DNA of 64,000 nucleotides, taken from contig CBDCMT010000001.1 in the NCBI GenBank assembly GCA_965219095.1, positions 1 through 64,000 on the forward strand, given 5' to 3'. The notes beneath the pieces are model-generated. The model was given only the letters and a program-made list of their open reading frames with translations, had not been told where the DNA came from and made no database searches. The first letter of the stretch is position 1. Each line of letters starts with the position of its first letter. This DNA comes from Bdellovibrionales bacterium (GTDB lineage: Bacteria; Bdellovibrionota; Bdellovibrionia; Bdellovibrionales; UBA1609). Below are positions 39,824 through 62,062 of this stretch, piece after piece. The position numbers and the translations under genes are program-made.

Positions 39824-39854
39824 CGAGGATGTCCCATTCATGGGACTTTAAAGT

Positions 39855-40925
39855 TCATAATTTTTCAGTAATTTTCTTTCCTATAAGAGGAGCAAGAGTG
39901 AATCCTGTGCAACTCCATCCAGCCGAAATAAGAAGATTTTTATATTTAGAATCATATTCTAAAATCCCTTGAGAATCTTTACTATAACTTTCAATAGCTC
40001 GTATTCCTCCTTCAAGGGTGGAGTTTTTCACCCAATTCAACCGATGACTGATTCGTTGTTTTGCTACATTGGCATCCCGAATGCTTAAATGTTCTAATGC
40101 TTTTTGTCGGCTATTGATTTGAGTTGCTTCAAAAAGATATCCACCCACGAATGATCCGTTCGGAAAAAAATGACCAAAAGTCCTTGAATTTTTATCAACA
40201 AATAAAGGGACTTTGGTTTGTCGATTCCTCCTAAAAAACCTGTTAACTTGAATAACTTGGGGAAAAATGTCCACCTTAGTTCCAAGAGTTTTTAATAAAT
40301 CATATGTCCATATGCCAGCAGTCAACACCAATTTTTCGCAGTTCAAAACCTCTCCTTGGCTAGTTTTAATTCCGGTAACTTTATTTTTTTTGGCCAAAAT
40401 TTCTAATACAGAAGTGTTAAGTTTTACATTGGCACCTCTTCTTTTAGAGTACCATACAAAAGCTTGTGTTGTGCTATAGGGACAAGCGTTTCCAGCACAG
40501 GGTTCATAAATGGCTACATCATCCTCATACCAGTAAAAATCAGGAAATTCTTTTTTACCTATAATTGGATCAATAATATGAAAATCCACTCCTGATGTTT
40601 TTAAAATAGAAAGATGTTCTGAAAAAGACCTAAGCTTATGACGTTTTAAAAAATACAAAGACCCTGTTCTATTAAAATGACATGGAAAGCCTACTTTTTC
40701 ATCAAAATTTACATAGAAAGGGACACTCTTGGCTGCATTTTTTGTTGTTTCTGGATTTTTATGCATAACTCTTATAAGAGATCCCCATGATCCTGTTGCA
40801 CCGCAACCAAAGCTAGATTTCTTCTCAATAAGCAAACAGTTGTAAATTCCTTTTTCAGTTAAATGATAAAGCACTGATGTTCCTACAGCTCCAGCTCCGA
40901 TGATAATGATATCGAAGTGTTTCAT
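39855..40925 (-). CDS. FAD-dependent oxidoreductase, D-amino-acid-oxidase-like (DAO family)
   Basis: DIIIIGAGAVG, GATGSWGSLIR, VLTAGIW, GFTLAPLIG; ATGA overlap with the upstream cupin-MetRS gene. Confidence 0.88.
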   Translation of the reverse strand: MKHFDIIIIGAGAVGTSVLYHLTEKGIYNCLLIEKKSSFGCGATGSWGSLIRVMHKNPETTKNAAKSVPFYVNFDEKVGFPCHFNRTGSLYFLKRHKLRSFSEHLSILKTSGVDFHIIDPIIGKKEFPDFYWYEDDVAIYEPCAGNACPYSTTQAFVWYSKRRGANVKLNTSVLEILAKKNKVTGIKTSQGEVLNCEKLVLTAGIWTYDLLKTLGTKVDIFPQVIQVNRFFRRNRQTKVPLFVDKNSRTFGHFFPNGSFVGGYLFEATQINSRQKALEHLSIRDANVAKQRISHRLNWVKNSTLEGGIRAIESYSKDSQGILEYDSKYKNLLISAGWSCTGFTLAPLIGKKITEKL

Positions 40926-42883
40926 TTTTTTAAAAACTTTCGAAATTGTTCTAAGCTTATGGAAAAATCAGATATTTTAAGATCGCAAAGGTGTCGAGTG
41001 ACCTTATTGGTTTCAACCACTCCTGCCGAGGTTTCTTCACACATCAGATGGGTGGAAAGTTTTTTTCCAAAATTTATCATAATAGGTGTGATGAGTTTTG
41101 CCCATTCTTGCAGTGCTGATAAACATAAACTAAGATTTTCCTTTGTATGTCTATGGCGATTTCTGAACCAGAATTTTCTTAAAAAATTCAGATAATAAGA
41201 CAATTGATCCGAAGCACCATTAAGAGAAAAATTTCTAAGTTCATAGAATTCTTGAATTTTCCAAGACTGTTGGGTGGATTCAAAGAGAAATTTTTCTTGG
41301 TAGCCCTTGAGTTTTGGCATAACAGCCCATTCATACCTGTACCTTTTTAGTGTATGATCTAATGAGTTAAAAAAACTCTCCCAGCGATCAACTAACTCGG
41401 TTTTAAGAAAATTTTCAAAATCAGAGAGTTGAAAGTTTGTTTCCTCATCTTCAGATCGAGTCAGGCACAAATAAAAACGCAGTGAATCTGAAGGAACAAA
41501 TTCTAAAATATCATGAGCCCAAATAGCATGGTTCCGACTCGTTGAAAACTTCTTTTCATTCAGTTGATAGAAATAATTGGAAAGAAAGCCTTTAGGTGGT
41601 CTTATGTTAGTGTCAATTTTATGCATTAAAGCTGGGAGTAGTAACCCGTAAAAAAAACTATTATCAAAACCAAAAGACTGAACTACTTCATTTTGATGAG
41701 ATTTCCAAAATTGAACTCCTTTTTGTCCCTTTCTTTTTGACAGGTAAAGTAAACTTGCAGCCATTTCTATCCATTCATAAATAATTTGATTTTTTTGACC
41801 TGGTACTGGAATACCCCAATTGGAAAATTGGCTAGCAGAGACATCGGGAAGTCCTAGTTTGAAATAGTTCAGATAAAACTCTCTTAGTTTTGGATGCATT
41901 TCAATGTGTTTCAGAGTTTCTTCTAAAAATGAGGAAGATTGAGAGAGGGGAAAATAATACCGATTCACTTCCTTTATGGAGATTTTACCATCGCCAAAGT
42001 TTGATTTTGGATCAATAAGATCAATACAGTCATTATAACAGCCACAGTTTTCACATCCATTTCCTCCAGTAGGGGTTTTGCAATGAGGACAAGTGCCTGA
42101 GATTTGGGAGCCGTAAATAAACTTTTGTGTGCTTTCGCAAAAAACTGTAGGAGCTTTTCTTAAGATTAAAAAACCTCCGTCTATCAACTTTTTAAAAATG
42201 TCTTGAACAAATTTTGTATAATCATTATTTTGGAAAGGGCTTAACCATTCATCATATGAACAGCCAAAAGCTTTCAGAGACTGTATAATAAGAGGTCTAT
42301 ATCTCTTGACGACCTCTTCATTTGTTAAATTGAGTTGAAGGGCTTGAGAGGGAACATAAGACTGATTGTCATCAGTTCCAATGGACACAGATACGTTTGC
42401 ATTTTGTATAGAAAGGTAGCGAGCAAAAACGTCCGCAGATAAATAGGGCCCAGACAAATGGCCTAGATGCAAGGGGCCGTTGGGGGTTGGAGGGGCTGGA
42501 ATGATCAAAGTAAAAGTAGGTTTTTTGACTCGGTAAGGAAGCACCCAGGCTATAGAGTGAAATTCCAATGGCTCAGAATGAGAAAGGTTTCTTAGAGTAT
42601 GCTCAGAATGAGGGGGAATGAAAATTGCATCTCCTGTGCTTACTTCTTGTATTTCTTCTTCAATTTGCATTACTCCACTTCCTTTTATGATAAGAAAAAT
42701 TTCCTGATCTTCATGGCAATGAGATGCTGTCGAATGGTATGGAGGAATTTGACAAAGAGTTAGTGCAAAAGGTGTTCGAAGCTCTTTGTCTCCTAAAGGT
42801 AAAGCTGTTTTACAAAAAATATTATAGGCTTTTTCCCAAGTGTGAGATCCTATCTTTTTAATCTGCACAAGTTGACTCTCCAA
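40922..42883 (-). CDS. Cupin + methionyl-tRNA-synthetase-like fusion (putative hydrazine synthetase, Spb40/PyrN/Tri28 architecture)
   Basis: N-terminal cupin SHCHEDQEIF..GDAIFIPPHSEH; class I aaRS PPTPNGPLHLGH, GTDD, Cys knuckle CPHC..CENC, GFDNSFFY, KFSTS. Confidence 0.88.
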   Translation of the reverse strand: MESQLVQIKKIGSHTWEKAYNIFCKTALPLGDKELRTPFALTLCQIPPYHSTASHCHEDQEIFLIIKGSGVMQIEEEIQEVSTGDAIFIPPHSEHTLRNLSHSEPLEFHSIAWVLPYRVKKPTFTLIIPAPPTPNGPLHLGHLSGPYLSADVFARYLSIQNANVSVSIGTDDNQSYVPSQALQLNLTNEEVVKRYRPLIIQSLKAFGCSYDEWLSPFQNNDYTKFVQDIFKKLIDGGFLILRKAPTVFCESTQKFIYGSQISGTCPHCKTPTGGNGCENCGCYNDCIDLIDPKSNFGDGKISIKEVNRYYFPLSQSSSFLEETLKHIEMHPKLREFYLNYFKLGLPDVSASQFSNWGIPVPGQKNQIIYEWIEMAASLLYLSKRKGQKGVQFWKSHQNEVVQSFGFDNSFFYGLLLPALMHKIDTNIRPPKGFLSNYFYQLNEKKFSTSRNHAIWAHDILEFVPSDSLRFYLCLTRSEDEETNFQLSDFENFLKTELVDRWESFFNSLDHTLKRYRYEWAVMPKLKGYQEKFLFESTQQSWKIQEFYELRNFSLNGASDQLSYYLNFLRKFWFRNRHRHTKENLSLCLSALQEWAKLITPIMINFGKKLSTHLMCEETSAGVVETNKVTRHLCDLKISDFSISLEQFRKFLKK

Positions 42884-42943
42884 AACTTTTACAATAATAA
42901 AAAATAACGTTATAAACTAGTACAGACGGGAGTACATTTTGCT

Positions 42944-43516
42944 GTGAGTCAAAGAGCCTTTACTAATAAAATTCCATCACTTGAAACTCCACGTCTTTTC
43001 TTAAGGGAACTTCAAATAAAAGACAGCAGATCTTATTTTCAACTGTGTTCAAATCCAAGTGTCATGAAAGCTTACGGAGTCGCTCATCACAAAAATGAAA
43101 ACGAAACGAAAAAAATCATCCAATTCCATAAAAAACAATTTCAAAACAAAGTGGCTATTCGTTGGGGAATTTTTTATAAAGAAAATAACAGCCTTATTGG
43201 CGATGTAGGATATTGGCGTTTTGATTGGAATCGCAATCGTGGTGAAATGGGTGCAAAACTAATACCTTGTTTCTTCCAAAAAGGTCTTATGACTGAAGCT
43301 TTGAGAAAGCTTATTACCTTTGGATTTGAAAAACTTAGACTGCATAGTATAGAAGGAGCAGCATTTCCACAGAATCCAGCCTCTAAAAAGCTTCTAGAAA
43401 AGCTAGGATTTCGACAAGAAGGTTATAGAAAAGAATTCTCTTATTCTCCTTACGAAAAAAAATATCTCGATAGTTACCTTTACTCGCTTCTTGAAAGTGA
43501 CTGGAAGGATATGTAA
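42944..43516 (+). CDS. GNAT N-acyltransferase (RimJ/RimL-like)
   Basis: LETPRLFLREL, FQKGLMTEAL, NPASKKLLEKLGFRQEG. Confidence 0.9.
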   Translation: MSQRAFTNKIPSLETPRLFLRELQIKDSRSYFQLCSNPSVMKAYGVAHHKNENETKKIIQFHKKQFQNKVAIRWGIFYKENNSLIGDVGYWRFDWNRNRGEMGAKLIPCFFQKGLMTEALRKLITFGFEKLRLHSIEGAAFPQNPASKKLLEKLGFRQEGYRKEFSYSPYEKKYLDSYLYSLLESDWKDM

Positions 43517-43517
43517 A

Positions 43518-44765
43518 ATGCATAAGGTCTGTTGCATTGTGGATGCCTATTCTTCTGGAAATTTCCTTGCACCTGAATTTAAAAAACTAGGCTATCCATC
43601 AATTCATGTTCAAACTACGAAAGAAATTTTTTCAGTACTGCAACCAAGCTTTCGCAAAAATGATTTTTCAGAAAATATTATTTTTGATGGAAATTTCGAA
43701 AACCTAAGGGAACGTCTTAGAAAATATCCCATAGCTTGTCTTCTGCCAGGAACAGAAACAGGCGTAGAACTGGCTGATCGACTCAGTGAAACCCTTAATC
43801 TTCCCACAAATGGGACCAGAAAAAGTCAAGCCCGTCGCAATAAATTTGAAATGTCTGAAGCTGTTAAAACTTTCGGCTTAGAGGTTGCAAAACAAAAAAT
43901 GTCTTGTGATGTCGAAAATTTGATTCATTGGTATAAAACAAGTAGCTTAAAAAAAGTTGTAATAAAGCCTATTGCAAGTGCTGGATCAGAGGATGTTAAA
44001 ATCTGTCATTCGGAAAGTGATATAAGTAAAGCATTCAGTCGAATGATGGGAAAAGTTAATAAGCTTGGTCATAAAAATGAAGCCCTTGTAGTACAAGAGT
44101 TTCTAGAAGGGGAGGAATATTTTATCAATTCTGTATCATGCCAGGGAAAACATCATATTACGGATATTTGGAAGCACCAAAAACGATCTTTAAATGGATG
44201 CGATTTTGTTTATGACTGTGCTGAACTGTGTTCCAGACAAGGAGAGGTTGAAGATAAAATCAGTGACTATCTTTTGAAAGTTTTAGAAGCTCTTGAAGTT
44301 CGGTTTGGACCAGCCCATTCTGAGATTATGATGACCTCAACAGGGCCGAAGCTCATTGAAATGGGAGCACGGATTCAGGGAATGTCTGTTCCAAGTTTAA
44401 ACCAAGAATGTATTGGATACGGACCCATTGACTTAACTGCAGAAGCTTATTTAAATTCAAGGAAATTTCAAGAAACAGCAAAAAACTCTTATCAACTCAA
44501 AAAGTATGCTTTAAGAGTGAATCTTATTTCTTATAAAAAAGGGATTCTTAAAAGTTTACCTGGTGAACATTTATTAAGAAAACTTGAAACTTTTTTCTTT
44601 TTAAGATGGATTAAAACTCCAGGTATGAAGATACCCAGAACTATTAATTATTTTACCGTCCCGGGCTTTGTTATACTCGTTCATGAAAACAAAGAAAAAC
44701 TCTATGAAGACTACACTAGGATACAGGAAATGGAAAGCCATAATGATATTTTAATGTATGAATGA
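43518..44765 (+). CDS. ATP-grasp amino acid ligase (NikS/BacD-like)
   Basis: VDAYSSG, ARRNKFEM, VIKPIASAGS, QEFLEGEEY, GPAHSE, IEMGARIQG; ATG 1 bp after the GNAT stop. Confidence 0.88.
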   Translation: MHKVCCIVDAYSSGNFLAPEFKKLGYPSIHVQTTKEIFSVLQPSFRKNDFSENIIFDGNFENLRERLRKYPIACLLPGTETGVELADRLSETLNLPTNGTRKSQARRNKFEMSEAVKTFGLEVAKQKMSCDVENLIHWYKTSSLKKVVIKPIASAGSEDVKICHSESDISKAFSRMMGKVNKLGHKNEALVVQEFLEGEEYFINSVSCQGKHHITDIWKHQKRSLNGCDFVYDCAELCSRQGEVEDKISDYLLKVLEALEVRFGPAHSEIMMTSTGPKLIEMGARIQGMSVPSLNQECIGYGPIDLTAEAYLNSRKFQETAKNSYQLKKYALRVNLISYKKGILKSLPGEHLLRKLETFFFLRWIKTPGMKIPRTINYFTVPGFVILVHENKEKLYEDYTRIQEMESHNDILMYE

Positions 44766-44923
44766 GAGAAATGCACTGGATACTTGCAGTTAATACTTGC
44801 AGTTAGGTGACATATAGTGCTTCCGTTTAGGTTTTCAGTTTCCTAAGATAGAGAAGTTATCAGTTATCAAAGTTTCTAATTTAGATCTGTGTTTTCGTAT
44901 TCCTCTAAAAAATTGACTTAAAC

Positions 44924-46137
44924 TGTAATAGTCGCGACTTAATCTGACACGTCTCGAAATGTCAAAGAGATGAAAAGAGGTTACCCTTTTAAATAAACAA
45001 TACCACCCCAAAGGGTGGAGAAAGGATAACAAAAATGACATATCAAGAAAGAATTATAAAATCAAAAGTAGGTCTTTTGCAATTAGCAGAAGAGTTAGGC
45101 AATGTATCTCAAGCTTGTAAGGTGATGGGCTTTTCAAGAGATACATTTTATCGTTACAAGACACTCAAAGAGGAAGGAGGTTTAGAATCATTAAGAGAGC
45201 AAAGTCGTAGAAAGCCTAATTTAAAAAACAGAGTTGATCAAACGACAGAAGAGGCTTGTTTAAGGATCGCTATAGAACTTCCTGCCTATGGACAGTTGAG
45301 AGCGTCCAATGAGTTAAGGAAAAAAGGAATTTTTATTTCTCCTGCAGGAGTTAGAGGGGTCTGGCTGAGAAATAATTTAGAGACTTTCAAAAAGCGTTTG
45401 AAAGCTTTAGAAAAGAAGTCTGCAGAGGAAGGCTTGGTTTTCACAGAGGAGCAGTTACAAGCCCTAGAGAAGAAGAAACAAGAGGATTTAGAGTGCGGAG
45501 AGGTAGAGACAGCTCATCCTGGTTATTTAGGCTCACAGGACACTTTTTATGTGGGAACTATGAAAGGTGTAGGACGTCTTTATCAACAAACCTTTGTGGA
45601 CACTTACTCAAAAATTGCTTTCTGTAAGCTCTATAAAACGAAAACACCTATTACAGCAGCTGACCTTCTCAATGATAGAGTGTTTCCTTTTTTTGAAGAC
45701 CATGATGTGCCCCTGCTTCGTATGTTAACAGATAGGGGTACAGAGTTCTGTGGAGTTCAAGATCGTCACGATTATGAGCTTTATTTGGCTATCAATGATA
45801 TAGAGCACACAAAAACAAAGGCAAGACATCCTCAAACCAATGGCATCTGTGAAAGATTTCATAGAACAATTTTAGAGGAGTTTTATCAAGTGGAGTTTAG
45901 AAAAAAAGTGTACAAAAGCATAGAAGAGTTGCAGTCTAACCTTGACTTGTGGCTTGTGAAATATAATGAAAGGAGAACTCATCAGGGAAAAATGTGTTGT
46001 GGTCGAACACCTATGGAAACTTTCCTTGACGGAAAACAAAAAGTAAGGCAAAAGATGATTGAACAGAACGCAAACTGACAGACAGTTTTTTATCAACCCA
46101 GAAAGGGTAACTGTCAGATCATATAACGTCTATTACA
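44924..46137 (+). mobile_element. IS481, intact (transposase 45035-46078)
   Basis: 1214 bp, TGT..ACA; SQDTF, TDRGTEF, NGICERFHRT. Confidence 0.95.
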
Positions 46138-46310
46138 GTTAAAAGGAGAGTTTCATCTTGAGCATTCTCGCCATCGTAGCCCACAAAACTTTGTCATCAA
46201 TCTTTTAGGTACTCTCATCTCCTATTGTTTAAAACCTAAAAAACCCTCCATTCAACTTAAAACTCAAGAACAGGGGCCTCTGAGCAATATATAAAAGTCG
46301 AAACTCGGGT
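46138..46310 (+). mobile_element. IS982 3' fragment
   Basis: LKGEFHLEHSRHRSPQNFVINLLGTLISYCLKPKKPSI; end aactcgggt. Confidence 0.7.
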
Positions 46311-46519
46311 TAATAGGTATAATCCCAGTCAACATCTGGTTTGTTGTGGTGGTTCATACCCAATTCTAATTGGTCCCAATCATTATCAGAAAATCTTAAA
46401 ACTTTAGCATATTCATCAAGATTTTTTGATGTGAAATATTCACACTCAGTTTTTACATTATGATGATGTCCATATGAACCACAAAACGTATCAAACCATT
46501 TATTGTAAGGTTTAGTATA

Positions 46520-46589
46520 TAGTGCTTCCGTTTAGGTTTTCAGTTTTTTTCTCTAGAGAATCGACCGGAAAATCTAAGCGTATTCACTA
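46520..46589. mobile_element. 70-bp IS630-A mini-element
   Basis: tagtgcttccgtttaggtttt..gaaaatctaagcgtattcacta flanked by TA. Confidence 0.75.
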
Positions 46590-46750
46590 TATACTTGTCT
46601 TACCTTCAAATCCTGCATTTCCTTATTAGTGAGATCCCATGCAAGATGGTAACTTTGCCCTTCAGGATTAATTTTAATTTTGTCGAGATTGATACTGACT
46701 AGAGTTTTTTCTTCCACCTCAATAAATTGTCTTGTTTCACTATAAACTAA

Positions 46751-48267
46751 GCCTCCTCAAAAGAATCTGTGGGTTCCCGGAGGTTCTGGCAGTTTTCCAA
46801 GGTTATGATATAAGGCGATTTTTATAGCTTTAGAGGTTCTAAAGCCGTAAGATTTTCTCATAGTGAGTTTTACTTTGTTGTTTAAACCCTCTACAATCCC
46901 TGAGGAGAAGGCTTTTTTAGCCTTGAAGTAATTAAGAATAAGTAGCTTATGTCTTCGTATGGTTTTTGCTTCTCTTTTCATAGGTTCAATTTTTGAAAGC
47001 ATGACTCGTCTCGTCCAACTGTCTATAAATTTACCAGCCCAAGTTGGTGAAACATAGGTCCATAACTGTCGGAAGTCTTCTTTTAAAAAATAACAGCGGA
47101 TACTTTTTAAATTGTACTGTATTAAATGCCTTAATTTTACTTTTTCATAAGATTTTAAATTTTCTGCATTTTTTAACAAGGGCCATCTAGCTTTTGTTAA
47201 AAGGGGTTCATACCCGTCTTCTTTCATTTTTTTGTGTTCTGAAGCTCTCACTTCGTCTAAAGCCTTATTGAGTCTTGCTACGATATGAAACCGATCTAAT
47301 ATGTGTAAAGCTCCACTTGCCCTCTCCTTTATGACTTTTAAATAAGGCTTCCACATATCAGACACACAAACCGTATATCTTTTGACTTCTCTCCTAGTAA
47401 ATCAAAGAATTTTCTAAAACTCTTTTCTGTTCGTTTCTCTCCTATCCACAACAAGCGTACACGGGTTTTGCTTATTTCATAGACTAAGGTGAGATACTGA
47501 TGGTTCTTTTTCCATTGTATTTCATCTACACCTATAGCTTGTATTCCCTTTAAAACCCTTTGTTTTAAACCATATTCTACGACCCATTCTACCGAAGCAT
47601 AGACCTGATTCCAACTGACATGAAACTTACAAGAAACCTCTTTCCAAGACAGGTGACGACACCAGTCTGCTAAATACTTCATGTAAAAGATCGTTAAACT
47701 CTTCTTACCATCGGCCCAAGGTAAATACTCAACTTTTACCCCACAGCAAGGACAATTAACTCTTCTTACAAAATAAACAAAAAACACCCTGTAACTTAAA
47801 ATAGGAAGGGATTCAAAGTCCCGTGATGATTTACTGCTGTCATACACTGAACAGGGCTTCTTACAAACACTACAAAAAGCTTGGCCATTTTTACGAGCCT
47901 TAATAGGAACATTAATTGACTTTCTATCTTTTGAAAAATAAATGTCTCCGTATACAAAAGACTTCCATCTTAAACAATCATTTAGTATAGTCTTCAAAAG
48001 CATCTCTTCCCTCCTTTTTTTTTTTGAATAACATTTTAAGGCATCTGGGAAGTAGGTGCTTCTTTTTTAAAATTTTAATGTAACACAGCAAATAAAAGCA
48101 AATAAAATGAATGTTTTTGAGTTCAATCGCCAAAGGCGATAGAGGCCAGTAAGGGCCTCAAAGAACTCAAAAATACAAGATAGGATGTCTTACTCTTACT
48201 TTGATTAATATGAGCCTTTTTGGGGGATTTCTAGCTACTTTTCACCCACAGATTCCCGGGAGGAGCC
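46751..48267 (-). mobile_element. ISL3, full length with one frameshift
   Basis: 8-bp TSD taaactaa (46743-46750 / 48268-48275); ORFs 47338-48003 and 46757-47365 break at RFVC/SDMWKPY. Confidence 0.95.
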
Positions 48268-49161
48268 TAAACTAATAGATAAACTCCTGCTTCAAGAGAA
48301 ATTCCTTCGTTTAATTTTTGTTTTGTTAAGTTATGGCAACTATATTTTTCAGGAAGTTCAAGATTTCCTCCACAGGCGAAGATATCATAGTCAGAAGATT
48401 GACCGTCTCCTGGAGTTCCATTGACCTTTAATGTCCCTTTACTTTTAGGGGGAGATATACTGCTAATAATGAAGTTTTCATCATACATGATGGGTTTTCC
48501 CATGGAGTTTGTAAAAGTAAGCTCTGGCTTTCTTCTTCTACGATGTCTCCATAAGAAAGCCCTCCTAAAGACATCAAAAATAAAAATGTTAGTATTAATT
48601 TTTTCATAACGTAAAATCCCTCCTTTTCTAAGTTTTTTGTTATGTTGGTTTCTTAAGTCTTATTTTTTAAACTCAAATTATAAAATTAGAATCTGTTCGC
48701 TAAATTAAAAAACCTAGTAAAAACAAAAAGCTTTTTGTTTTTTAAAAGTATTTTTCTCTGAAAAGAGCCTTTTAAGTGGACCTTATTTTATGAATTAAGC
48801 TCTACTTAACTTTCATTTTAAGAATGATGTGATTTCAAGTAGTTGAGCAAAACCGTGATCACTACACTTTAACCGGTGAGTTATAGGATTTTAGGGGTTA
48901 AAATTGAATGGTTTTTTGGGTGACTTTATTTGTATTTTCTTGTTCTCTACAATCTGAACTAAGATAGAACCATTTTTTCTTGGATCTTTTTTACAAATAT
49001 ATTTATAAAAATTTTAAAATCATATGTAAAAATTACAATTCAAAATTTTTTAGTTGAATTTTTAACTCAGTCTGTTAACATTCATATAGTATTTAACAAT
49101 TATTAAAAAAACGGGTAAAAAACAGGGTTTTTGATCCTAAACAAAAAAAAGAGGAATAAAA

Positions 49162-49905: not shown

Positions 49906-49955
49906 GATGAAGATGAACTCGATCTGTTCTCAAGACCATAAGATAAAGATAAGCT

Positions 49956-50651: not shown

Positions 50652-52544
50652 CCTGAGTTTGCCCTTTCATTAAAAAAACACCTTCAGATCGAAAACAATG
50701 CAGTTTCATGTCTTTTTTCTTTAAGTTTATAATATGTCAGGTAATGTGCAATTATATAACTTGGAGAAAAAAGAGGGAGGGATTTTTTATGTTCATGGCT
50801 TGTCCTAAAAGAAAAGATGGAAATATTGTAGTTAGGCTGATTGTATCCTATAGAAAGGAGGGTAAACCTAAATCCAAAATAGTTAAAACTATCGGTCAAT
50901 CTAAAGATCCTAAAGCTGTAGAGCGGTATAAAAAGATAGCTAAAGAATTAATTGAAAAAGAAAAAAAGGGACTTGTTTCAATAGAGGGTGCTATTCGTAA
51001 TAAGATTACAGTAAATCTTTCAGATGTAGACAATGAAGAGCGTCGTAATAATGGCTTTAATGACATTCTAGGTTTTACTTACCAACAGTTGGGTTTTAAT
51101 GATCTCATCCAAGCAGGAAGAGATCCTAAAAAGCTCAATGCTATTTTAAAGAATCTAGTTTTGATGAGAGTTTTTGATCCATCAAGTAAATTAAAAAGTT
51201 CCTATTTACTTGAGGAGCATTTTGGTAAAAATATAACTCTCAAACAAATTTTAAATTTGATGGATCACATATCAGATCAGGAAGAAAACATTAGGGATAG
51301 AATTTCCCAAGTTATTCTTAATGGGGAAAAGAGCTTAGACATTGTCCTTTTTGATGTAACGACCTTGGCCTTTGAAAGTGTTGTCCCAACGGACTTATTA
51401 GATTTTGGTTACAGCAAAGATGGTAAACCTGGAGAGGTTCAAGTTGTTTTAGCTGTTTTATCGAATCAGAAGGGTTTGCCTATAAGTTATGAATTATTTG
51501 CTGGCAACACTTCAGAGTTTGAGACCTTTGAATCAATGATTAAGGGGGTTTCTAGGAAGTATAACCTTAGAAAGATAAGGGTTATAGCAGACCGAGGTTT
51601 GTTTTCCAATAATAATCTTGAAGCTTTAGAGGGGTTAAATTCAGAGGGAATCAAAGCTGAGTACATTGTTTCTTGTCCCTTAAAAAAACTTCCTAAATCT
51701 CTTAAGGACAGTATTTTGAATAAGAGTAATTACAAAGATGATGGTACAGAAGGCTCTAAAATCTTATACCATGAGGTTGAGTATAATAACCGACGAATTA
51801 TTATAAGTTACAGTGAGAAACGTGGGCGACATGATATAAAAAAAAGGGAACGTGCTGTAGAAAAGCTAAAGGAGTTAGAAAAAGATGGAAAGATTAAAAG
51901 TTCTAAGCTGATAAAAGGTGGAGGGAAAAATAAATATATACAAAAAGTTCGTGGGGACACAAAGATTGATTGGAAAAAAGTGGAGCAAGACGCCTTGTGG
52001 GATGGTCTATATGGAGTTTGTACAAATTTAAAATCAGAGTCTGTTCATGCCATTTGTGAGGCCCGCTACAATCTTTGGCGAATTGAAGAGCTGTTTCGGA
52101 TTAACAAACATAATTTAAAAATGCGACCCATATATCATAGAAAAACTCAAAGAATAAGATCACACATAGCTATTTGTTTTTTAGCTTATGTGGTTCTGAG
52201 AAGTACAGAAATAACTTTAAAAGAAGCAGGGGTGAATATTAGCTCCCAAGAGCTTATTGAGACTCTTAAGGATGTAGAGACTAATATTATTCGAAATAGA
52301 GTAAAAGTTCCCTCTAAAGCTTATGGCCTTCCTCGTAAGTTATCTGCAAAGGCTAAGAAAATTTATAAGCTCTTTGGAAAGGAGTTTCCTGAAAGAGCCT
52401 ATGAAATAACATAATTGTGAATGTTTATTGGAGAGCTTTTGGTATGTAGAAAAATGTAGTATGTCTTTTTCATTGGAACAGTGCATAAACCTAGTTATTT
52501 CAGGTACTTAAAGTAATAGCTAAATTTGAAAGGGCAAACTCAGG
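50652..52544 (+). mobile_element. IS1634-family IS (type B), intact transposase (likely 50789-52414)
   Basis: IR cctgagtttgccctttca / tgaaagggcaaactcagg; FDVTTL, GYSKDG, IADRG, LWRIEELFR, RPIYH; no TSD. Confidence 0.92.
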
Positions 52545-54583
52545 AGAGGGGTCTGGCTGAGAAATAATTTAGAGACTTTCAAAAAGCGTTTGAAAGCTTT
52601 AGAAAAGAAGTCTGCAGAGGAAGGCTTGGTTTTCACAGAGGAGCAGTTACAAGCCCTAGAGAAGAAGAAACAAGAGGATTTAGAGTGCGGAGAGGTAGAG
52701 ACAGCTCATCCTGGTTATTTAGGCTCACAGGACACTTTTTATGTGGGAACTATGAAAGGTGTAGGACGTCTTTATCAACAAACCTTTGTGGACACTTACT
52801 CAAAAATTGCTTTCTGTAAGCTCTATAAAACGAAAACTGAACTTCCCCTGTTTCTGCGGACAGTCAATTTTCTCTTAAAGTCTCCATAAAATGGAGGTAA
52901 AAGAAAGAATGGAAAAAGTAAAACAGTACTCGGAAGAGTTTAAAAAGCAAGCCATTGAATTGGCAGAGGAAATAGATGCAAAGGAAGCCTCAGAGAAGCT
53001 AGGACTGAGAAATTTCCAAGTGATAAGCTCTTGGAAGCGTTTTCTAAAGCCTGAAGTAGAAAGACAAGCTTCCCATGACTTGGCTTCGGCATTGGAGGAA
53101 ATAAAGAGGTTAAAAAAGGAGCTGGTCTATGAGAGGCGGAGTGTAGGTATATTGAAAGAGGCAGCGGCTTTTTTTTCAAAGGAAATCCTGAAATGAGATT
53201 TAAGGCTATGTTTTATGTAAAAGAGAAAGGGCATCCAGTGCTTCGCATCTGCGAATTATTAAGAGGATCTCGTTCTGGTTTTTATAGTTTTTTAAAAACC
53301 AGGGGAAAGCTTGAAAAGGATAAAAATCTGGAGAAAAACATAGAATCTATTTTTAAAAAAAATAAAGGCTGTTATGGTTCCCCCAGGGTGTATAGGGAAT
53401 TAAAGCGTTGCGGAGTGAGTGCTGGAGAAAACAAAGTAGCTCGAATTATGAAACTAAAGAATCTCAGTGCCCGTCAGAAAAAACCCTATGTTCCTAGAAC
53501 AACAAAGAATAACCCTCTCATGATTAAGTCTCCTCGGTTGTTTAAGACAGGACAGAGCCAAGCAGGAAAAGAAAACCAGGTATGGTGTTCGGATTTAACC
53601 TATATTCCTTTTAGAGATAAATTTCTGTATTTGGTTGTATTTTTAGATGTCTATAATCGAGAGATTAAGTCTTGGAAGCTCTGTGAGAGCTTGGACGGGG
53701 TTCATTCAAAACAGGCTCTGAGAGCCGCAGTCCAATCTGTTTCTGGGAACTTAGAGGGCTTGATAATCCACTCGGATCAAGGGGTTCAATATTGTTGTGA
53801 AGGGTTTAGAAAAGAATTGAAATTCTTTGGCCTCAAGCAATCTATGTCTAGGAAAGGAAATTGTTATGATAATGCGTTTGTGGAGAGCTTTTTCCATACG
53901 TTGAAGGATGAACTGGAATACAAAGACTGTACAACAAAGGAAGAGTTGGAAAAAAAAATTGCAATTTACATGGATTGGTATAACAAGGTAAGAATGCATT
54001 CTTCCTTGAAATACATGAGCCCAAAAGAATTTAAACAAAGGAGGGCTTTAAGAACATAAAAACTGTCCACTTTTTTGGGGGAAGATCAAACACCTATTAC
54101 AGCAGCTGACCTTCTCAATGATAGAGTGTTTCCTTTTTTTGAAGACCATGATGTGCCCCTGCTTCGTATGTTAACAGATAGGGGTACAGAGTTCTGTGGA
54201 GTTCAAGATCATCACGATTATGAGCTTTATTTGGCTATCAATGATATAGAGCACACAAAAACAAAGGCAAGACATCCTCAAACCAATGGCATCTGTGAAA
54301 GATTTCATAGAACAATTTTAGAGGAGTTTTATCAAGTGGAGTTTAGAAAAAAAGTGTACAAAAGCATAGAAGAGTTGCAGTCTGACCTTGACTTGTGGCT
54401 TGTGAAATATAATGAAAGGAGAACTCATCAGGGAAAAATGTGTTGTGGTCGAACACCTATGGAAACTTTCCTTGACGGAAAACAAAAAGTAAGGCAAAAG
54501 ATGATTGAACAGAACGAAAACTGACAGACAGTTTTTTATCAACCCAGAAAGGGTAACTGTCAGATCATATAACGTCTATTACA
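52545..54583 (+). mobile_element. IS481, 5'-truncated and interrupted by IS3
   Basis: Begins mid-transposase next to IS1634-B; right end tctattaca at 54583. Confidence 0.92.
52838..54088 (+). mobile_element. IS3-family IS, intact (orfA 52891-53196, orfB 53193-54059)
   Basis: TG..CA ends; 3-bp TSD aac; ATGA overlap between orfA and orfB. Confidence 0.95.
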
Positions 54584-55621
54584 CTTAAACTTCCCTTGAA
54601 ATCGTCATAGTTTTCATAATAGCGATTTGCTGTGACCTCTTTTTTCATAAACTTCCAAAGCCTTTCTATAGGATTTAAATTCGGTGAATACGGAGGAAGA
54701 TAAACAAGTTTTATATTCAACTCTTTCGCTAACTTCTTGACAGACTTCGATCTATTGTATCCGGCCCCATCTAAGATAAGATGAATCTCTTTTTCATCGG
54801 GATGCTTCTTGCGAAGATGATGGAGCATATCACATAGAAAAACTTCGTTAACTGTCTTATAACTCCTGACTACCGTCTTCAAACTATTGATCTCAATAGC
54901 TCCACAAACATTCACTCTTTTTCTCCAGCCTGAATTGGTCTTCACTTCAAACTTCTTACCCTCTCTTATCCAACCATATGAAATCGTAGGGCCCCACTCA
55001 GGATGTGTGGAATCAGCAAAGTAAACAGGACTGTCTTTCTTCTTAATTCTCTTGTATTTACGCACAAACTTTTTCTGCTCTTCTCTCTTTGCCTTACCTG
55101 GTATCGCTGTGGCTTTTTTATAAGAAAAACCAAGGCGATGGAGAAGATCAATTACACCACTTGTTAAAGTACGTAACACCAAAATTCTCCTCAATGAATT
55201 GGATGACAGACTGTGATGATGGAAAAATTCTTTTCTCTAATTCCTTTAAAAGCATTTTCTCCTCTTTCTTAGTTAAAAAGGACCTTTTAGGGTTGTAATT
55301 GTCGTTGATTAAACACTCTATCCCACCTTTGTTATAAGGATCTCTATAGGCTCTTATCGTGCCCTCATCAATGAAAAGAAAACGGGAAATATCTTTACAC
55401 AACTCACCTTTATCTAAATGGAGAATTGTCATAATCCTTTTTGCGTATTTAAGATTTTTCTCTAGAGATAGTTCATAGAGTAAATCTTTTCGCTCTTTTT
55501 TTGATAGAAACCCTGATATATGAAACTATTTTTAAAAATAAATGACTTTTTATCAAGGCCTTAGAACAAAAACTAGACCTCAACTCAAAAAAAAACGGAA
55601 AACCTAAGCGGAAGCACTATA

Positions 55622-55810
55622 TACTAATTGTATTTCAAAATCCACACACAGAGAGTGGGGTCTAGTTTTTGTTAAAATGTCTTGATAGCACAGAGTTCTA
55701 TGTAAACAATATCTTTTATGGGAACCTTGTTATCAAAAAAAGTGTAAGAGCTTTTATCAGCATGCTTCTTCCTAAAAAATTAATGTGTGGATTTTGAAGT
55801 GTAATCAGTA
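55622..55810. mobile_element. About 190-bp TA-flanked MITE
   Basis: tactaattgtatttcaaaatccacac ... gtgtggattttgaagtgtaatcagta imperfect IR; another end copy at 57096. Confidence 0.7.
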
Positions 55811-55814
55811 TAAT

Positions 55815-56942
55815 TTATCTAAGTTTCAGAAAATCAATTTCATATTCAATTTTCTCTGAATGAATCATTTTTTTAACTAAATCTCCAATCAATGGAATAA
55901 ATTTAAAAGCGTGACCTGAACCTCCGGTAGCAAGAACTACATTTTTAAATTCTGGATGAAAATCTATTAAAAAATTTTCATCTTTTGTTAGGGTATAAAA
56001 ACACATTTTCCAGTTTAATGGTTTTTTATGCACATGAGGCAGAAACCTATCAATGACTTGAGTGATGGGTTTTAGCTCTTTTTCTTTGTACTCATATTTT
56101 TTTTCTAAAGCTCCTTCAATCTGATCAGAGGGAGCATAGTTGGAAATCTTAAGGCCTGATTGATCGACATCAGGGAATCCATAAATAAACTCTCTGTTTT
56201 CTATAACAGCAAAGCAGGGCATTTTTTCCTTATAAGAATGTTTACTTGCAAACCAAAACTGAGGAGCACGTGTGATTTTAAATATCATAGGAAGAGGGGA
56301 TAATAAATCTGAACTCCAAGGCCCTGGTGATAGAACAAGATAATTCGCCCAATATTCACTCTTATCAGTTACAACATGGACCTCTGAGCCGTGGTTTTCC
56401 CACGAAGATACTCTCTCATTTGTTTTAAATATTGCACCTTTTTTACGAGCTAAAGATAAAAATGTTTCAATAGTTAGATCTGATCTTATAATACCTGCTT
56501 TTTTTTCAAATTGACCCATAAAGCCCATGGGCATTAGAAATTGGGGAAAACTGTTTTTAAGTTGCTTTCGGCTTAAGGTTTCATTTTCAATGTTATAAGA
56601 GTCTGCATAAGAAAAAATTGTCTCTGAAATTTGTTCTTTTTCGGGACTTAAAACTAAAAACCCTGTCTCCGTTAATAGATCTTGGTTGAAGTTTCTTTGG
56701 GTATTAAGTTTTTTCCAAAGCTCATAGGAGTGTTTTGCAAGAGGGATGTATCTTGGGTCTTCAAAGTAAGTTTGACGGAAAAGCCTTGTCTTTCCGCTTG
56801 AGCTTCCTTTCTGGTGTGGAGGAGAAAAGCGATCAATTCCAATGACATTTAATCCACTGAGAGTCAAATAATAACAAATAGCAGACCCCATTCCTCCATA
56901 ACCTACAACTATGACATCACTTTTTAAAATTTTTTTTGTCAT
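55815..56942 (-). CDS. Monomeric sarcosine oxidase / N-methyltryptophan oxidase-like flavoenzyme
   Basis: VVGYGGMGS, PPHQKGSSSGKTRLFR, CFYTLTKDENFLID (covalent-FAD Cys position), GSGHAFKF. Confidence 0.88.
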   Translation of the reverse strand: MTKKILKSDVIVVGYGGMGSAICYYLTLSGLNVIGIDRFSPPHQKGSSSGKTRLFRQTYFEDPRYIPLAKHSYELWKKLNTQRNFNQDLLTETGFLVLSPEKEQISETIFSYADSYNIENETLSRKQLKNSFPQFLMPMGFMGQFEKKAGIIRSDLTIETFLSLARKKGAIFKTNERVSSWENHGSEVHVVTDKSEYWANYLVLSPGPWSSDLLSPLPMIFKITRAPQFWFASKHSYKEKMPCFAVIENREFIYGFPDVDQSGLKISNYAPSDQIEGALEKKYEYKEKELKPITQVIDRFLPHVHKKPLNWKMCFYTLTKDENFLIDFHPEFKNVVLATGGSGHAFKFIPLIGDLVKKMIHSEKIEYEIDFLKLR

Positions 56943-57095
56943 CTACAACTCCTAATCTTTCTAAAACAAGGGGAGTACGATCATAAAATCTTTCATGAAT
57001 GATCAAAAATCAATCCGCCTTTCATTAAAATAACATCAATACCCCTAAAGTCTTTAAAAACTTTTCCTCTATAACAGATGTCTGTACTGTAAATA

Positions 57096-57308
57096 TACTA
57101 ACTGCACTTCAAAATCCACACATTAATTTTTTAGGAAGAATCATACACATGGAAGTTGTAGGTCAAGAGACTGCTCAATTCTTTCTTGATATGTCATTTT
57201 TGTTATCCTTTCTCCACCCTTTGGGGTGGTATTGTTTATTTAAAAGGGTAACCTCTTTTCATCTCTTTGACATTTCGAGACGTGTCAGATCAAGTCACAA
57301 CTATCACA
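57096..57308. mobile_element. MITE end plus diverged IS481 left-end fragment
   Basis: tactaactgcacttcaaaatccacac at 57096; 57179-57308 matches the IS481 left end in reverse. Confidence 0.75.
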
Positions 57309-57346
57309 GCTTATTACTAAAAGTGACTCCTCTCGGAAATCTGTGA

Positions 57347-57377
57347 GAGCCTGTAAATTTACAGGCTCTTTTTTTTT
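57347..57377. terminator. Palindromic hairpin with T tract downstream of MATE
   Basis: agagcctgtaaatttacaggctct followed by a T run on the + strand. Confidence 0.45.
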
Positions 57378-57443
57378 CCCTCTAATCCATCTTTGTCCAC
57401 TTTGTACAAAGTTGTCTTGCTTCTTCATATGTCATAAAACCTC

Positions 57444-58841
57444 CTAAACAATTGCTTTATTTTTAATCATCTTTAACTGGTGAGTAATTTTCATCCAAGA
57501 ACATAAAATCATAACAGCAATGCTTATAACCCCCACACACAAACCAATCCAAAGACCTGTCAATCTCAGATGAAAACTAAAGCAAAGTATCAATGCCAAT
57601 AACAGTCCTATGGGATAATACCCTATAGCACAAGCTACAGAAGCCGTCTTTGTATGCCCTAACCCTCTTAAAGCCCCGGTAGCGCATGCTTGTACAGCAT
57701 CAAAAACTTGAAACACAGCCCCCCAAAATATAATTTTAGATCCCATACGAATCACATTAAGATCATAAGTGAACCAACTTAAAATCATTTCTGGAAAATT
57801 AAACAAAACAACTGCGATGATTGACATTATAAAAATTCCAATGATGATGGAGATCCAGCCGGCTTGTTTAGCATGCTCTCTATCGCCGGTTCCAACAAAG
57901 TACCCCACTCTATAGGCTGCAGCACTTGAAAGTCCCACTGGAAACATGTAAGTAAAAGAAACAATCATGATGACAACATGGTGGGCTGCTGTTTCATAAG
58001 GGTTAAGCCAGGCGGCAAACACAGTGGTAAGAGAAAAAATACCCACTTCAAAAACTTGCTGCCATCCTGCTGGAATTCCTAATCTTAATACATTATGTGC
58101 AAATGTTCGATCTATAGAAAAAGGGTTTAAAAGTTTTTTTAAATTAAAATTTCTATTTGTTTTAAAATAATTGAATGTCAGCATAAACATGGCTAAACAA
58201 AGACTTCCTCTAGAAAAGTTTGTAGCTACGGCTGCACCATAAACACCCCAGGATGGAAAGCCAAATTCACCAAAAATCAAGGCTCTATTGGCAAAATAAT
58301 TTATAACATTAGCAACCAACACCATCACTAATATTGGTTTTGTCACTTTTCGACTTTGCCAATACCTTTGCATACCTGTAAAAAAGAGTAAAAAAGGTAA
58401 TCCTGTACCTATAATGGCAAGGTATATTTCAGCATTTTCTAAAAGAGATGGGTCTGATTTAAACACCCAAAGATTTTTAGAAATGAAAAGAATCAAAGGT
58501 GAGAAAATGATAGACAGATAAAAACAGAACTTTAAACTTTGATACAATATACTTTCAAGAGTTTTTGAATTTCCTGCTCCATAGGCTTGAGATGTAATGG
58601 TATCCAGGGCTGACAAAATCCCCATCGCAAAAACCGCTATCACCCAAAAAATAGATCGAGCCAATCCAGCACTAGCTAGAGAATTTGTATCAATACGACC
58701 TAACATCACTGTATCTACAAGGCCCATTAACATAAAACTTACTTGAGCCAAAACTATAGGAAAAGCAAACCGAATGGTGTTTTTTAATTCGTCTCTAAAA
58801 GAATGTGATTTCAAAAACATACTCTTCATCGTACTTTTCAT
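57444..58841 (-). CDS. MATE-family efflux transporter (NorM-like)
   Basis: About 12 TM; PIVLAQ..GLVDTVMLG, SQAYGAG, LGIPAG..E, FQVFDAVQ..GALRGLG; TAATG coupling to the hydroxylase gene. Confidence 0.93.
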   Translation of the reverse strand: MKSTMKSMFLKSHSFRDELKNTIRFAFPIVLAQVSFMLMGLVDTVMLGRIDTNSLASAGLARSIFWVIAVFAMGILSALDTITSQAYGAGNSKTLESILYQSLKFCFYLSIIFSPLILFISKNLWVFKSDPSLLENAEIYLAIIGTGLPFLLFFTGMQRYWQSRKVTKPILVMVLVANVINYFANRALIFGEFGFPSWGVYGAAVATNFSRGSLCLAMFMLTFNYFKTNRNFNLKKLLNPFSIDRTFAHNVLRLGIPAGWQQVFEVGIFSLTTVFAAWLNPYETAAHHVVIMIVSFTYMFPVGLSSAAAYRVGYFVGTGDREHAKQAGWISIIIGIFIMSIIAVVLFNFPEMILSWFTYDLNVIRMGSKIIFWGAVFQVFDAVQACATGALRGLGHTKTASVACAIGYYPIGLLLALILCFSFHLRLTGLWIGLCVGVISIAVMILCSWMKITHQLKMIKNKAIV

Positions 58842-60178
58842 TAAGTCAACAAATCTCGATTAAGTTCTGGAAGATTTTTATTTCCAGAATGAAGGGGAAT
58901 ATATTTAGAAAGAATATGGTCGGAAAGTCTTCCAAGACAACTTAAACTCGCAAATCCCGGCCCCTGATTGAGTCCCGCCATCATGGGTAAATGAAGCGAT
59001 GGCTGCAATCCTGAAATTGCAAGATTTTCATCAATTCTTTTTTCAACATTCTGAGCACTAAGCTCTTTTAATTTTGTTTGACGGAGTATTGATTCTTTTG
59101 CATTTTCACTTAAAAGTTTTTCTACAAAATCCATGTGATTAAAACCAGTTGTAATAACAACTAAGTCATAAATTCGTTTTTCCCGATCTTTATCATATTC
59201 AATGTCAAGTACAATTTGGTTAAGAGAGTCAATGCCAATGGATCGACAAGTTCCTGGAATGATTTCCACATTTGATAAACGATCCAAATCTCTTTTAGTA
59301 AGAAAAGAGAAAACTCCCTTATCAGTGCGGTTGATAAAATTCCTCCTATCTTTTTCGGTTAATTGGAGCCAGTTTCCTTGGAAAGGATCAGTGTAGATAT
59401 GGTTTTCTGCGTAGCTTTCGCCTCGTGTATAAGTCATTGCATTAGGAGAGATGATATCGACATGAAAGCTTGGATCGAGCTGTCCTAATGTTACAGCAAT
59501 AGCTGCTGAACTTTCACCAGAACCCACTAAAGCGGCTTGAATGTTTTTTTCTTTTGTGTAATCTTCGTGGGTTTTCCAAAAGTTTTCTGTTTTTAATATT
59601 CTAGGATGGTGCGGAATACAAAAGGGGAGATGAGTTGATCCTGGACCTGTGATCACTAAACTGTCAGAAAAGTGATCAAAAAAACGTCCTTCAGAACTTT
59701 CGGCTTGAACCCTCCACCTTCCATTATCAATATCTATGGATTTAACTGCTGCATTTATATACTGAACTTCACTTTGAACTTTATGAAACACCCATTCCAT
59801 ATACTCAGCCCACATGTGATGGGAGGGAGCAGGTCGTCCTCGGTCGATCCAATCTGCATATTGATGTTTCCCAATAAAAAAACTCTGCCAAGAAAATTGC
59901 TGCATTAATGCATCCACCATGCGATTTTCAGAATCACCCCAACAAAAAGAATAATAAGGAAATCCTAAATCTTTTTCAGGAGATGTTCCCAAGGGAAGTT
60001 GACCATTTGTGTACCCAGAACCATTTCGCCAATGATGGCCTACCTCTTCTTTCTCAAAAAGGATAAGAGAAGGGACAGGAAAACCAACTTTTTTGAGAAC
60101 AAATGCTTTTGTAATGACGGCAAGTGCCTTAGGCCCCGCTCCAATAAGAGCTAAAGTTTTTTGTTCTTTCTTAGCCAT
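58841..60178 (-). CDS. L-lysine N6-monooxygenase (MbtG-like, SidA/IucD/PvdA family)
   Basis: IGAGPKA, LGTSPEKDLGFPY, WIDRGRPAP, VGSGESSA, QGPGFASLSCLGRLSD, as recalled for mycobacterial MbtG. Confidence 0.9.
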   Translation of the reverse strand: MAKKEQKTLALIGAGPKALAVITKAFVLKKVGFPVPSLILFEKEEVGHHWRNGSGYTNGQLPLGTSPEKDLGFPYYSFCWGDSENRMVDALMQQFSWQSFFIGKHQYADWIDRGRPAPSHHMWAEYMEWVFHKVQSEVQYINAAVKSIDIDNGRWRVQAESSEGRFFDHFSDSLVITGPGSTHLPFCIPHHPRILKTENFWKTHEDYTKEKNIQAALVGSGESSAAIAVTLGQLDPSFHVDIISPNAMTYTRGESYAENHIYTDPFQGNWLQLTEKDRRNFINRTDKGVFSFLTKRDLDRLSNVEIIPGTCRSIGIDSLNQIVLDIEYDKDREKRIYDLVVITTGFNHMDFVEKLLSENAKESILRQTKLKELSAQNVEKRIDENLAISGLQPSLHLPMMAGLNQGPGFASLSCLGRLSDHILSKYIPLHSGNKNLPELNRDLLT

Positions 60179-61813: not shown

Positions 61814-62062
61814 AATTTACCTCCTATTGGTTTGAAAGTGTTTAATTTTTTGTTTTTAAGTCCTGTTCTCTATGTTAAGTCAAGTGAAGGACTCTTAACG
61901 TAACTGTTCAGAAAAATTCTAGTAAATTGTTGAAATTTCACTAAAAGCTCCTATGCCTATAATGTTATATGATGTTTTTCGTTTAGATTTTCAGATTTTT
62001 TGAGTTAGGGTCTAGTTTTTATTCAAAAGTATTGATAAATCGTCATTTGTTTTAAAAAATAG

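Follow-up and report, generated by a model that had tools for sequence, protein, structure and literature searches.

Gene clusters of the hydrazine synthetase type were predicted in 2010 (PMC2922099), and their central step, formation of a nitrogen-nitrogen (N-N) bond, is established (PMC8664883; bioRxiv 2025.08.22.671884; PMC12376268). Family members are known in Microcystis, Corallococcus, Colwellia, Bacillus and others (PMC11705231; PMC13755311). Here we analyze such a cluster in the first 64,000 nucleotides (the window) of contig CBDCMT010000001.1 of the Bdellovibrionales assembly GCA_965219095.1. An original prediction, made from the letters of the window alone, had proposed that genes between 39855 and 60178 encode a carrier-free pathway to a hydrazine or hydrazide. 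We estimate with a probability of about 0.72 that they belong to a pathway of eight genes that makes a small N-N compound without a carrier, and that this pathway was horizontally acquired, duplicated and scattered by insertion sequences (IS) and is probably still under selection. This figure covers the class of pathway and not the exact order of its steps.

The hydrazinoacetate cassette (Spb38-40, Tri26-28, AzsL/M/N) consists of a lysine hydroxylase, a didomain synthetase, an FAD oxidase and an N-acyltransferase, and the window cluster contains parts of these kinds, with a synthetase pocket code equal at six of eight positions. In triacsin and azaserine biosynthesis, however, the unit is loaded on carrier proteins and oxidized by an acyl-CoA dehydrogenase, whereas the window cluster is carrier-free: no carrier protein, loading enzyme or acyl-CoA dehydrogenase was found in the window or among the conserved neighbors. 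Furthermore, neither the hydroxylase nor the oxidase of the window has a close counterpart in an azaserine-type plasmid cluster. The original prediction had regarded the synthetases as characterized mostly in actinomycetes, but they are known well outside that group (bioRxiv 2025.08.22.671884; PMC11705231).

A carrier-free ATP-grasp enzyme that forms a hydrazide was described for fuscazine in 2026 (PMC13149037). The fuscazine cluster (fuz) shares with the window cluster an N-monooxygenase, a cupin, an enzyme resembling methionyl-tRNA synthetase (MetRS), a flavin oxidase and an ATP-grasp ligase, and both lack a carrier protein or nonribosomal peptide synthetase (NRPS). The two differ in detail, as judged from the description of fuz rather than its sequences. 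Fuz has a split cupin and MetRS, a (hydroxy)arginine substrate, two ATP-grasp ligases, a dioxygenase and a tRNA deacylase, whereas our cluster has a fused enzyme with a glycine-like pocket, one ligase, a second oxidase, a GNAT acyltransferase, a pyridoxal-phosphate (PLP) decarboxylase and a MATE exporter. No second ATP-grasp ligase, arginine hydroxylase or tRNA deacylase was found among the conserved neighbors, and the second ATP-grasp copy in the genome is a 64-codon remnant. In its logic the cluster would resemble the carrier-free fuscazine pathway, without belonging to the fuscazine type.

Two other systems are similar in part. The actinopyridazinone enzymes Apy9/10/11 include a synthetase and an oxidase, with a small amino acid as a possible nitrogen donor; that pathway uses diaminobutyrate and alanine and cleaves a C-alpha-N bond (PMC11705231). 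A Bacillus plasmid cluster (NZ_CP036016.1, locus L178; known from its annotation) is likewise carrier-free and encodes a synthetase, a hydroxylase, a related oxidase (30% identity), an ATP-grasp enzyme, a GNAT and an MFS exporter. It differs in having an arginase, a distant ATP-grasp enzyme (26% identity over 152 aa) and a different GNAT and hydroxylase, and in showing no decarboxylase or second oxidase in the region examined. Bacillus plasmids, 32 of the 65 plasmid records matched, carry homologues of the synthetase. Negamycin is made by a different route (negamycin preprint) and was set aside as a match.

The original prediction did not recognize this gene combination from characterized pathways. 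In the literature searched we found no description of the gene set, although subscription papers and closed supplements may hold one; the carrier-free ATP-grasp synthesis of a hydrazide, in contrast, is known from fuscazine. The novelty lies in the pair of oxidases, in a decarboxylase that is almost always present and in the hosts, while the core N-N chemistry and carrier-free hydrazide formation were known before.

Results

Genes of the cluster

The features are listed below, the eight core genes first. G000 denotes the host genome, C2 one of its contigs, and L numbers the loci collected for comparison.

39855-40925, minus strand: DAO-family FAD oxidase (PF01266, E 2e-39); its ATG overlaps the synthetase stop
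40922-42883, minus strand: predicted didomain hydrazine synthetase, cupin plus MetRS-like domain (Pfam Cupin_2 and tRNA-synt_1g)
42944-43516, plus strand: RimJ-type GNAT acyltransferase (PF13302, Acetyltransf_3, E 3e-29), divergent from the synthetase across a 60-bp gap
43491-44765, plus strand: ATP-grasp L-amino-acid-ligase-like enzyme of the PRK07206/DdaF group (NF005543, 431 bits, above cut-off)
55815-56942, minus strand: flavoenzyme of the monomeric sarcosine oxidase (MSOX)/MTOX family (NF008425, 344 bits, above cut-off; MSOX, E 3e-59)
57444-58841, minus strand: MATE exporter (PF01554, E 9e-57; TIGR00797, above cut-off); its ATG overlaps the hydroxylase stop
58841-60178, minus strand: NbtG/MbtG-type flavin lysine N6-hydroxylase (Lys_Orn_oxgnase; PDB 4D7E, 'L-Lys monooxygenase', E 6e-87)
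G000:C2:331740-333206 (L158:9741-11207), minus strand: group II PLP-dependent decarboxylase, intact (PF00282, E 6e-58; PLP lysine K312 kept)
56956-57434, minus strand: broken SnoaL-like gene, accessory; early stop, IS481 end fragment at about 57177-57315, frameshifted 3' part
44804-55763, no strand: spacer outside the pathway, with IS481, ISL3, IS1634-like, IS3 and IS630 pieces, a truncated scpB copy and a secreted-type ORF
G000:C2:333224-333415, minus strand: decayed copy of the ATP-grasp 3' end, 192 bp, directly upstream of the decarboxylase; it corresponds to window 44574-44765 (plus strand)

The seven window genes that had been called intact are all open and free of stops, and Pfam and NCBIfam confirm their families. 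The same scans found no NRPS or carrier gene in the window, as predicted. The prediction overlooked two features, the broken SnoaL gene and the decarboxylase outside the window.

A predicted hydrazine synthetase with a glycine-like pocket

Sequence and fold give strong grounds to assign the fusion protein as a hydrazine synthetase, predicted to join N6-hydroxylysine to an amino acid through an N-N bond. The Cupin_2 domain spans residues 43-111 and the tRNA-synt_1g domain residues 129-505, with HLGH at 139-142 and KFSTS at 445-449. The cupin ligands H55, H57, E61 and H95, invariant in all 20 aligned sequences, keep the spacing of H50/H52/E56/H90, which PyrN requires (PMC8664883). The top PDB sequence match is PyrN-C (9L8V/9VQ4; bioRxiv 2025.08.22.671884), with an E value of 8e-59, above all true MetRS entries. 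The AlphaFold model (pLDDT 89) also has 9L8V as its top fold match, with a TM score of 0.87-0.90 over the target and an rmsd of 2.8-3.4 Å, versus 4.5-7.5 Å to the MetRS entries listed. The likeness to PyrN of the pyrazomycin pathway thus comprises the fold, the HLGH and KFST motifs and the four cupin ligands. The pocket is different: the seven-residue code of PyrN, SFVALRR, contains two arginines and binds glutamate, whereas the corresponding code of the window enzyme, APDWMSY, has neither arginine.

The eight-residue pocket code is APDQWMNY. It is identical in six of eight positions to TPDQWMNH, the code of the glycine-using Spb40 and AzsN; that of the threonine-using ThzN is SADQWYGH (PMC12376268). 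Four plasmid synthetases carry TPDQWMNH in three cases, one of them from the azaserine-type cluster, and APDQWMNY in the fourth. In 10 MetGs the same columns read A/GLDGWAIH. Because of the agreement with the glycine-type code, the amino acid joined is probably glycine, with alanine or serine the next candidates.

The possibility that the fusion is the housekeeping MetG was ruled out. It scores 253 bits on the metG profile, below the cut-off of 336, and its pocket is distinct. A separate MetG with KMSKS lies at about G000:C2:401750-403400. In a quick IQ-TREE analysis of 75 of the 149 sequences extracted (8 short loci left out, the others thinned), this MetG clusters with 9 MetGs from related organisms (support 100). 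The synthetase falls in an 8-row branch (support 100) within a 15-row branch (95) of cluster-bearing synthetases; 2 further rows labeled as cluster members fall outside the latter. The fusion is therefore neither grouped with MetG nor the only MetRS of the genome.

Related pockets occur elsewhere. Many Thermoanaerobaculia synthetases (L028-L051 and related Acidobacteriota loci) carry APDQWMNY or the variants APDS/CWMNY, several beside adenylation domains; in most of these loci no NbtG-type hydroxylase and neither oxidase type is seen within the stretch covered. A divergent synthetase-like branch (L152-L155, L157) has DFSTS for KFSTS, the pocket APDQWGCH and no cupin in the aligned ORF.

The other enzymes

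By family and PDB match, the hydroxylase is strongly predicted to make N6-hydroxylysine. The DAO-family oxidase probably cleaves the C-N bond adjoining the N-N bond. It is 30% identical to the oxidase of the Bacillus plasmid cluster but barely alignable, at 28-31 bits, to the oxidase of the azaserine-type plasmid cluster, which we used as a stand-in for Spb39/AzsM. It is not a close relative of that azaserine-type enzyme, so the original comparison with Spb39 is a guess at the level of the family.

The GNAT is 23% identical (E 4e-8) to that of the azaserine-type cluster, and a promoter scan of the divergent gap between it and the synthetase gave 0 sites. The ATP-grasp enzyme likely starts at the ATG at 43518, directly 3' of the GNAT stop. 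It matches PDB 30VH, an 'L-amino acid ligase' (E 1.5e-65), and scores 270 bits on the DdaF model, below that model's cut-off. The family is large, with 5752 matches among 50% representatives. In the MSOX-like enzyme, R53, R56, K265, C314 and K347 are invariant across 11 aligned members. These include the residues aligned with Arg52 and Lys348 of MSOX, which we take to bind the carboxylate, and with Cys315, which presumably links the FAD. For the oxidase and the decarboxylase, ESM Atlas returned only generic families. The SnoaL remnant matches an intact gene of L021 (tblastn, E 2e-8), which likewise lies between the MATE gene and the oxidase.

The two halves form one cluster with a decarboxylase

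In the window the cluster is divided into two halves, 39855-44765 and 55815-60178, by a gap of about 11 kb. We gathered 146 loci around related synthetases, 59 of them at least 19 kb long. Twelve carry an orthologue of the ATP-grasp gene, and every one of these also carries the DAO, the hydroxylase, within about 10 kb of the synthetase (16 kb in the window), and the decarboxylase. The MSOX-like gene is present in 10 of the 12, the MATE gene in 10 (at threshold), the GNAT in 9 and SnoaL in 6 (at threshold); all seven window genes are found in 6 of the 146. Among 49 loci of at least 19 kb lacking the ATP-grasp gene, none has an orthologue of the DAO, MSOX-like, GNAT or decarboxylase gene, and 13 have the hydroxylase. 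In L013 the genes have exactly the order and orientation seen in the window, and the decarboxylase stands where the window has the IS spacer.

A genome-wide check that did not start from the synthetase gave a similar picture. Among 400 genomes of the phylum, the decarboxylase orthologue occurs in 10 and that of the DAO in 8 (at least 42% identity). All 8 DAO genomes also carry the decarboxylase and 7 carry a close ATP-grasp gene; a ninth DAO match (33%) is in a genome without the decarboxylase. Co-occurrence across the loci and across these genomes rules out chance adjacency of two unrelated halves, and as judged from it the two halves are one cluster, as the original prediction had supposed. 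The seven-gene set is incomplete, however, because the decarboxylase present in all 12 ATP-grasp loci had been missed, and a host expressing only those seven would probably not yield the product.

Record labels place the related loci in Bdellovibrionota, Planctomycetota, one cyanobacterial metagenome-assembled genome and the coarse groups 'Pseudomonadota' or 'Deltaproteobacteria'. The Planctomycetota records are two Uabimicrobium chromosomes (L018, L021) with intact versions; hosts include Ca. Uabimicrobium amorphum SRT547. In three loci the RimJ-type GNAT is replaced by a stand-alone adenylation domain and an FAD_binding_3 flavoprotein, which suggests that the capping step is exchangeable. 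The adenylation domains lie at L012:1023-3797 (fused to the ATP-grasp enzyme), L015:2440-3885 and L022:4436-6271; their ORFs lack the carrier motif GG(H/D)S, and their pocket residues presumably resemble a glycine code.

A second, smaller cassette is common in Bdellovibrionota-labeled records (L067, L072, L078, L084, L086, L116, L120 and others). Divergent LysR and EamA-like genes are followed by genes for the synthetase, an oxidase, a hydroxylase resembling NbtG, a protein of 209 aa that weakly matches FeeM (E 0.0015 for one member) and a methyltransferase. Of the 146 loci, 25 have the FeeM-like gene and 16 have all four extra genes. This cassette could make an N-acyl or N-methyl hydrazine signal.

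A probable duplication with reciprocal loss

The decarboxylase, the only PF00282 match in the genome, lies about 270 kb from the cluster and is 40-53% identical to the decarboxylases of 11 cluster loci. Directly upstream is the ATP-grasp remnant, which has 86% DNA identity to the window gene, an internal stop and a lost glycine that 11 of 11 homologues keep; it is also present as a separate short-read contig. The simplest reading is a duplication followed by reciprocal loss, in which the decarboxylase disappeared from one copy and was the only gene retained in the other. The sole gene of the second copy surviving intact in the assembly is the one missing from the first, a natural experiment suggesting that the decarboxylase is needed.

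At 0.32 IS breaks per kb, 3.2 would be expected in the eight core genes (10.2 kb) and 0 were seen (P 0.039), which suggests that the eight genes are still under selection. Counting the broken SnoaL gene weakens this case, as the Poisson probability of one break or none in about 10.6 kb is about 0.15. The IS-free islands (39825-44803, 55764-57093, 57316-61896 and, on C2, 330983-333429) match the gene blocks, and at three gene ends the island border lies 30-51 bases away. A search of 40 relatives did not find the hydroxylase, which is present in only 11 of 300 genomes of the order and 1 of 104 of the family; this rarity points to horizontal acquisition.

Other traces of duplication were seen. 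Contigs in runs X1-X3 match window 40756-40914, the 5' end of the DAO gene, and then diverge; such a copy is absent from the assembly and could fit the duplication history or derive from another organism. The 5'-truncated scpB copy (49956-50597), adjoining an IS1634-like element, is another old duplication; its protein is 88% identical to the copy on contig C1.

Host genome and surroundings

Among the 120 RecA matches listed, 13 name an organism; 12 of these are labeled Bdellovibrionales, Bdellovibrionaceae or Pseudobdellovibrionaceae and one 'Pseudomonadota', in agreement with the Bdellovibrionota-like host originally predicted. The IS-eroded state of the genome was also borne out: repeated DNA makes up 38% of G000 (94% complete) and 72% of the spacer. 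An assembly artifact is not supported. Short-read contigs from four runs of one study, possibly the source of the assembly, match the four-gene half and bridge the junction between the ATP-grasp gene and the IS, and they carry the remnant separately. The cluster has no match in viral contigs.

The cluster is flanked by a repeat beta-propeller ORF (60559-61813) and an Ig-like repeat ORF (36179-39169), both of multi-copy families in this genome. A CPAF-like protease at 25937-27700 (528 bits on NF033424, cut-off 250) lies near a subtilase (23285-25039); together with the IS load it hints at a host-associated lifestyle. The two PP-binding matches in the genome are both away from the cluster. An isolated AMP-binding and carrier-like ORF between IS elements (G000:C2:1460833-1462659; L177:8834-10660) was not counted as part of the pathway, being far off and only about 25% like the variant adenylation domain.

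Discussion

We propose the following route. The flavin hydroxylase would convert lysine to N6-hydroxylysine, which the synthetase would link to glycine, giving a Lys-N-N-Gly conjugate. The coupled DAO-type oxidase would cut the lysine side and free hydrazinoacetate; this hydrazinoacetate route is tentative, and we put it somewhat short of even odds. The RimJ-type GNAT may then cap one nitrogen, as AzsS and Tri31 do; AzsS succinylates hydrazinoacetate (PMC10445470). Hydrazinoacetate is isosteric with sarcosine (NH2 for CH3), so oxidation of the hydrazinoacetate unit to a hydrazone would be a reasonable role for the sarcosine-oxidase-like enzyme, as a carrier-free stand-in for AzsF/Tri22. The decarboxylase would supply an amine or omega-amino acid, the ATP-grasp enzyme would ligate the decarboxylase-derived amine as an amide or hydrazide with no carrier, and the MATE protein would export the product.

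Two other uses of the oxidases stay live because the DAO is distant from the azaserine-type oxidase and because both oxidase types, found together here, occur singly beside synthetases of other clusters. The lysine skeleton could be kept if the oxidase cuts the glycine side, giving N6-aminolysine, which would be decarboxylated to a hydrazino-pentylamine and acylated. Apy10, which cleaves a C-alpha-N bond (PMC11705231), follows this logic, and by established chemistry a PLP decarboxylase requires a free alpha-amino acid, which the conjugate has only at its lysine end. The DAO is also closest, among the oxidases compared, to that of the Bacillus cluster with its own arginase. On the other hand, the GNAT resembles the acylase of the azaserine-type cluster and the MSOX-like enzyme keeps the presumed carboxylate-binding residues, and we consider retention of lysine rather unlikely. 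Alternatively, both oxidases could cut C-N bonds to release free hydrazine, as proposed for albofungin (PMC11705231). Acylation of each nitrogen by the ATP-grasp enzyme and by the GNAT (or the adenylation domain of the variants) would then give a diacylhydrazine. GNAT and adenylation domain are indeed mutually exclusive, in 9 and 3 of the 12 loci, but no gene for a glutamine-synthetase-like or Afn14-like hydrazine carrier was found among the conserved neighbors and L015 shows no second oxidase within the stretch covered, so that we find double cleavage distinctly unlikely.

The cluster family could also be real and this copy a dying relic that no longer makes a product. SnoaL is disrupted, the decarboxylase lies far from the other genes, the break statistics weaken once SnoaL is counted, and near its C-terminus the window ATP-grasp enzyme has a glutamine where 11 of 11 homologues carry an arginine. 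We consider a relic unlikely nonetheless: the eight core genes have long, uninterrupted ORFs that retain the catalytic residues, they show no IS break, and the second copy retains only the gene missing from the first. A hydroxamate siderophore pathway, to which the synthetase would be incidental, is very improbable. The parts (decarboxylase, N-hydroxylase, acylase, ligase, exporter) echo desferrioxamine and aerobactin logic, the hydroxylase is NbtG-like, and such a role was mooted for these clusters in 2010 (PMC2922099). Yet no Condensation or IucA/IucC match was found in the 94% complete genome (the IucA/IucC profile did find matches in 2 of 14 genomes), no receptor was seen among the conserved neighbors, and the GNAT is of the Acetyltransf_3 type. 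A synthetase with an intact cupin also stands beside all 12 ATP-grasp loci, though these were found through the synthetase.

Several points weigh against the hydrazinoacetate-type pathway that we prefer, or narrow its support. Enzyme families, catalytic motifs and linkage are directly visible in the DNA; the reactions are predicted from homology and from the pocket code. The synthetase tree includes no characterized synthetase or oxidase, and the orthologue bit-score thresholds were set after a first view of the data. Our literature search did not find APDQWMNY in print, although the supplement of bioRxiv 2025.08.22.671884, with about 1,700 mined codes, may already list the clade. The DAO profile gives only 28 bits on the azaserine-type oxidase, which makes lysine-side cleavage tentative, and no gene recycling aminoadipate semialdehyde is conserved among the cluster neighbors. 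Diaminobutyrate-, aromatic- and glutamate-type matches to the decarboxylase score alike, at about 120-157 bits. Of the 12 loci, L015 lacks the MSOX-like gene within the stretch covered, and in another this gene is cut by a contig end. Among the 400 genomes, two have the decarboxylase but not the DAO, and in one of these the 12 kb covered contain no further gene of the cluster. Seven of the 8 phylum genomes come from one family and several are loci already counted, so the two sets of counts are neither independent nor additive.

Bdellovibrionota and Uabimicrobium are predatory lineages, and the former is a phylum little mined for natural products. A further-reaching reading, possible but one we would not count on, is that the cluster represents a new class of N-N natural products of these two groups. 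Synthesis would need no carrier. Two different flavin oxidases would act to either side of the N-N bond, or a free hydrazone would be made by a sarcosine oxidase; a PLP decarboxylase would take a substrate that bears a hydrazine. The cell would export the product to serve as a weapon or a signal, and its value would be such that a genome flooded with IS has retained a working copy of each of the eight genes, at two sites. In the papers searched, neither this oxidase pair nor this decarboxylase chemistry is described for hydrazine synthetase pathways.

The findings overturn nothing, as the N-N-forming step and carrier-free hydrazide ligation were already known. They describe a compact, conserved and uncharacterized N-N pathway, carried by about 2% of the sampled genomes of the phylum (8 of 400), whose eight core genes occupy about 10 kb and could be expressed whole. 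Since two Uabimicrobium chromosomes carry intact versions, a native producer may be assayable. To the known range of hydrazine synthetases the pathway would contribute a new pocket code, perhaps together with oxidase or decarboxylase chemistry not seen there before.

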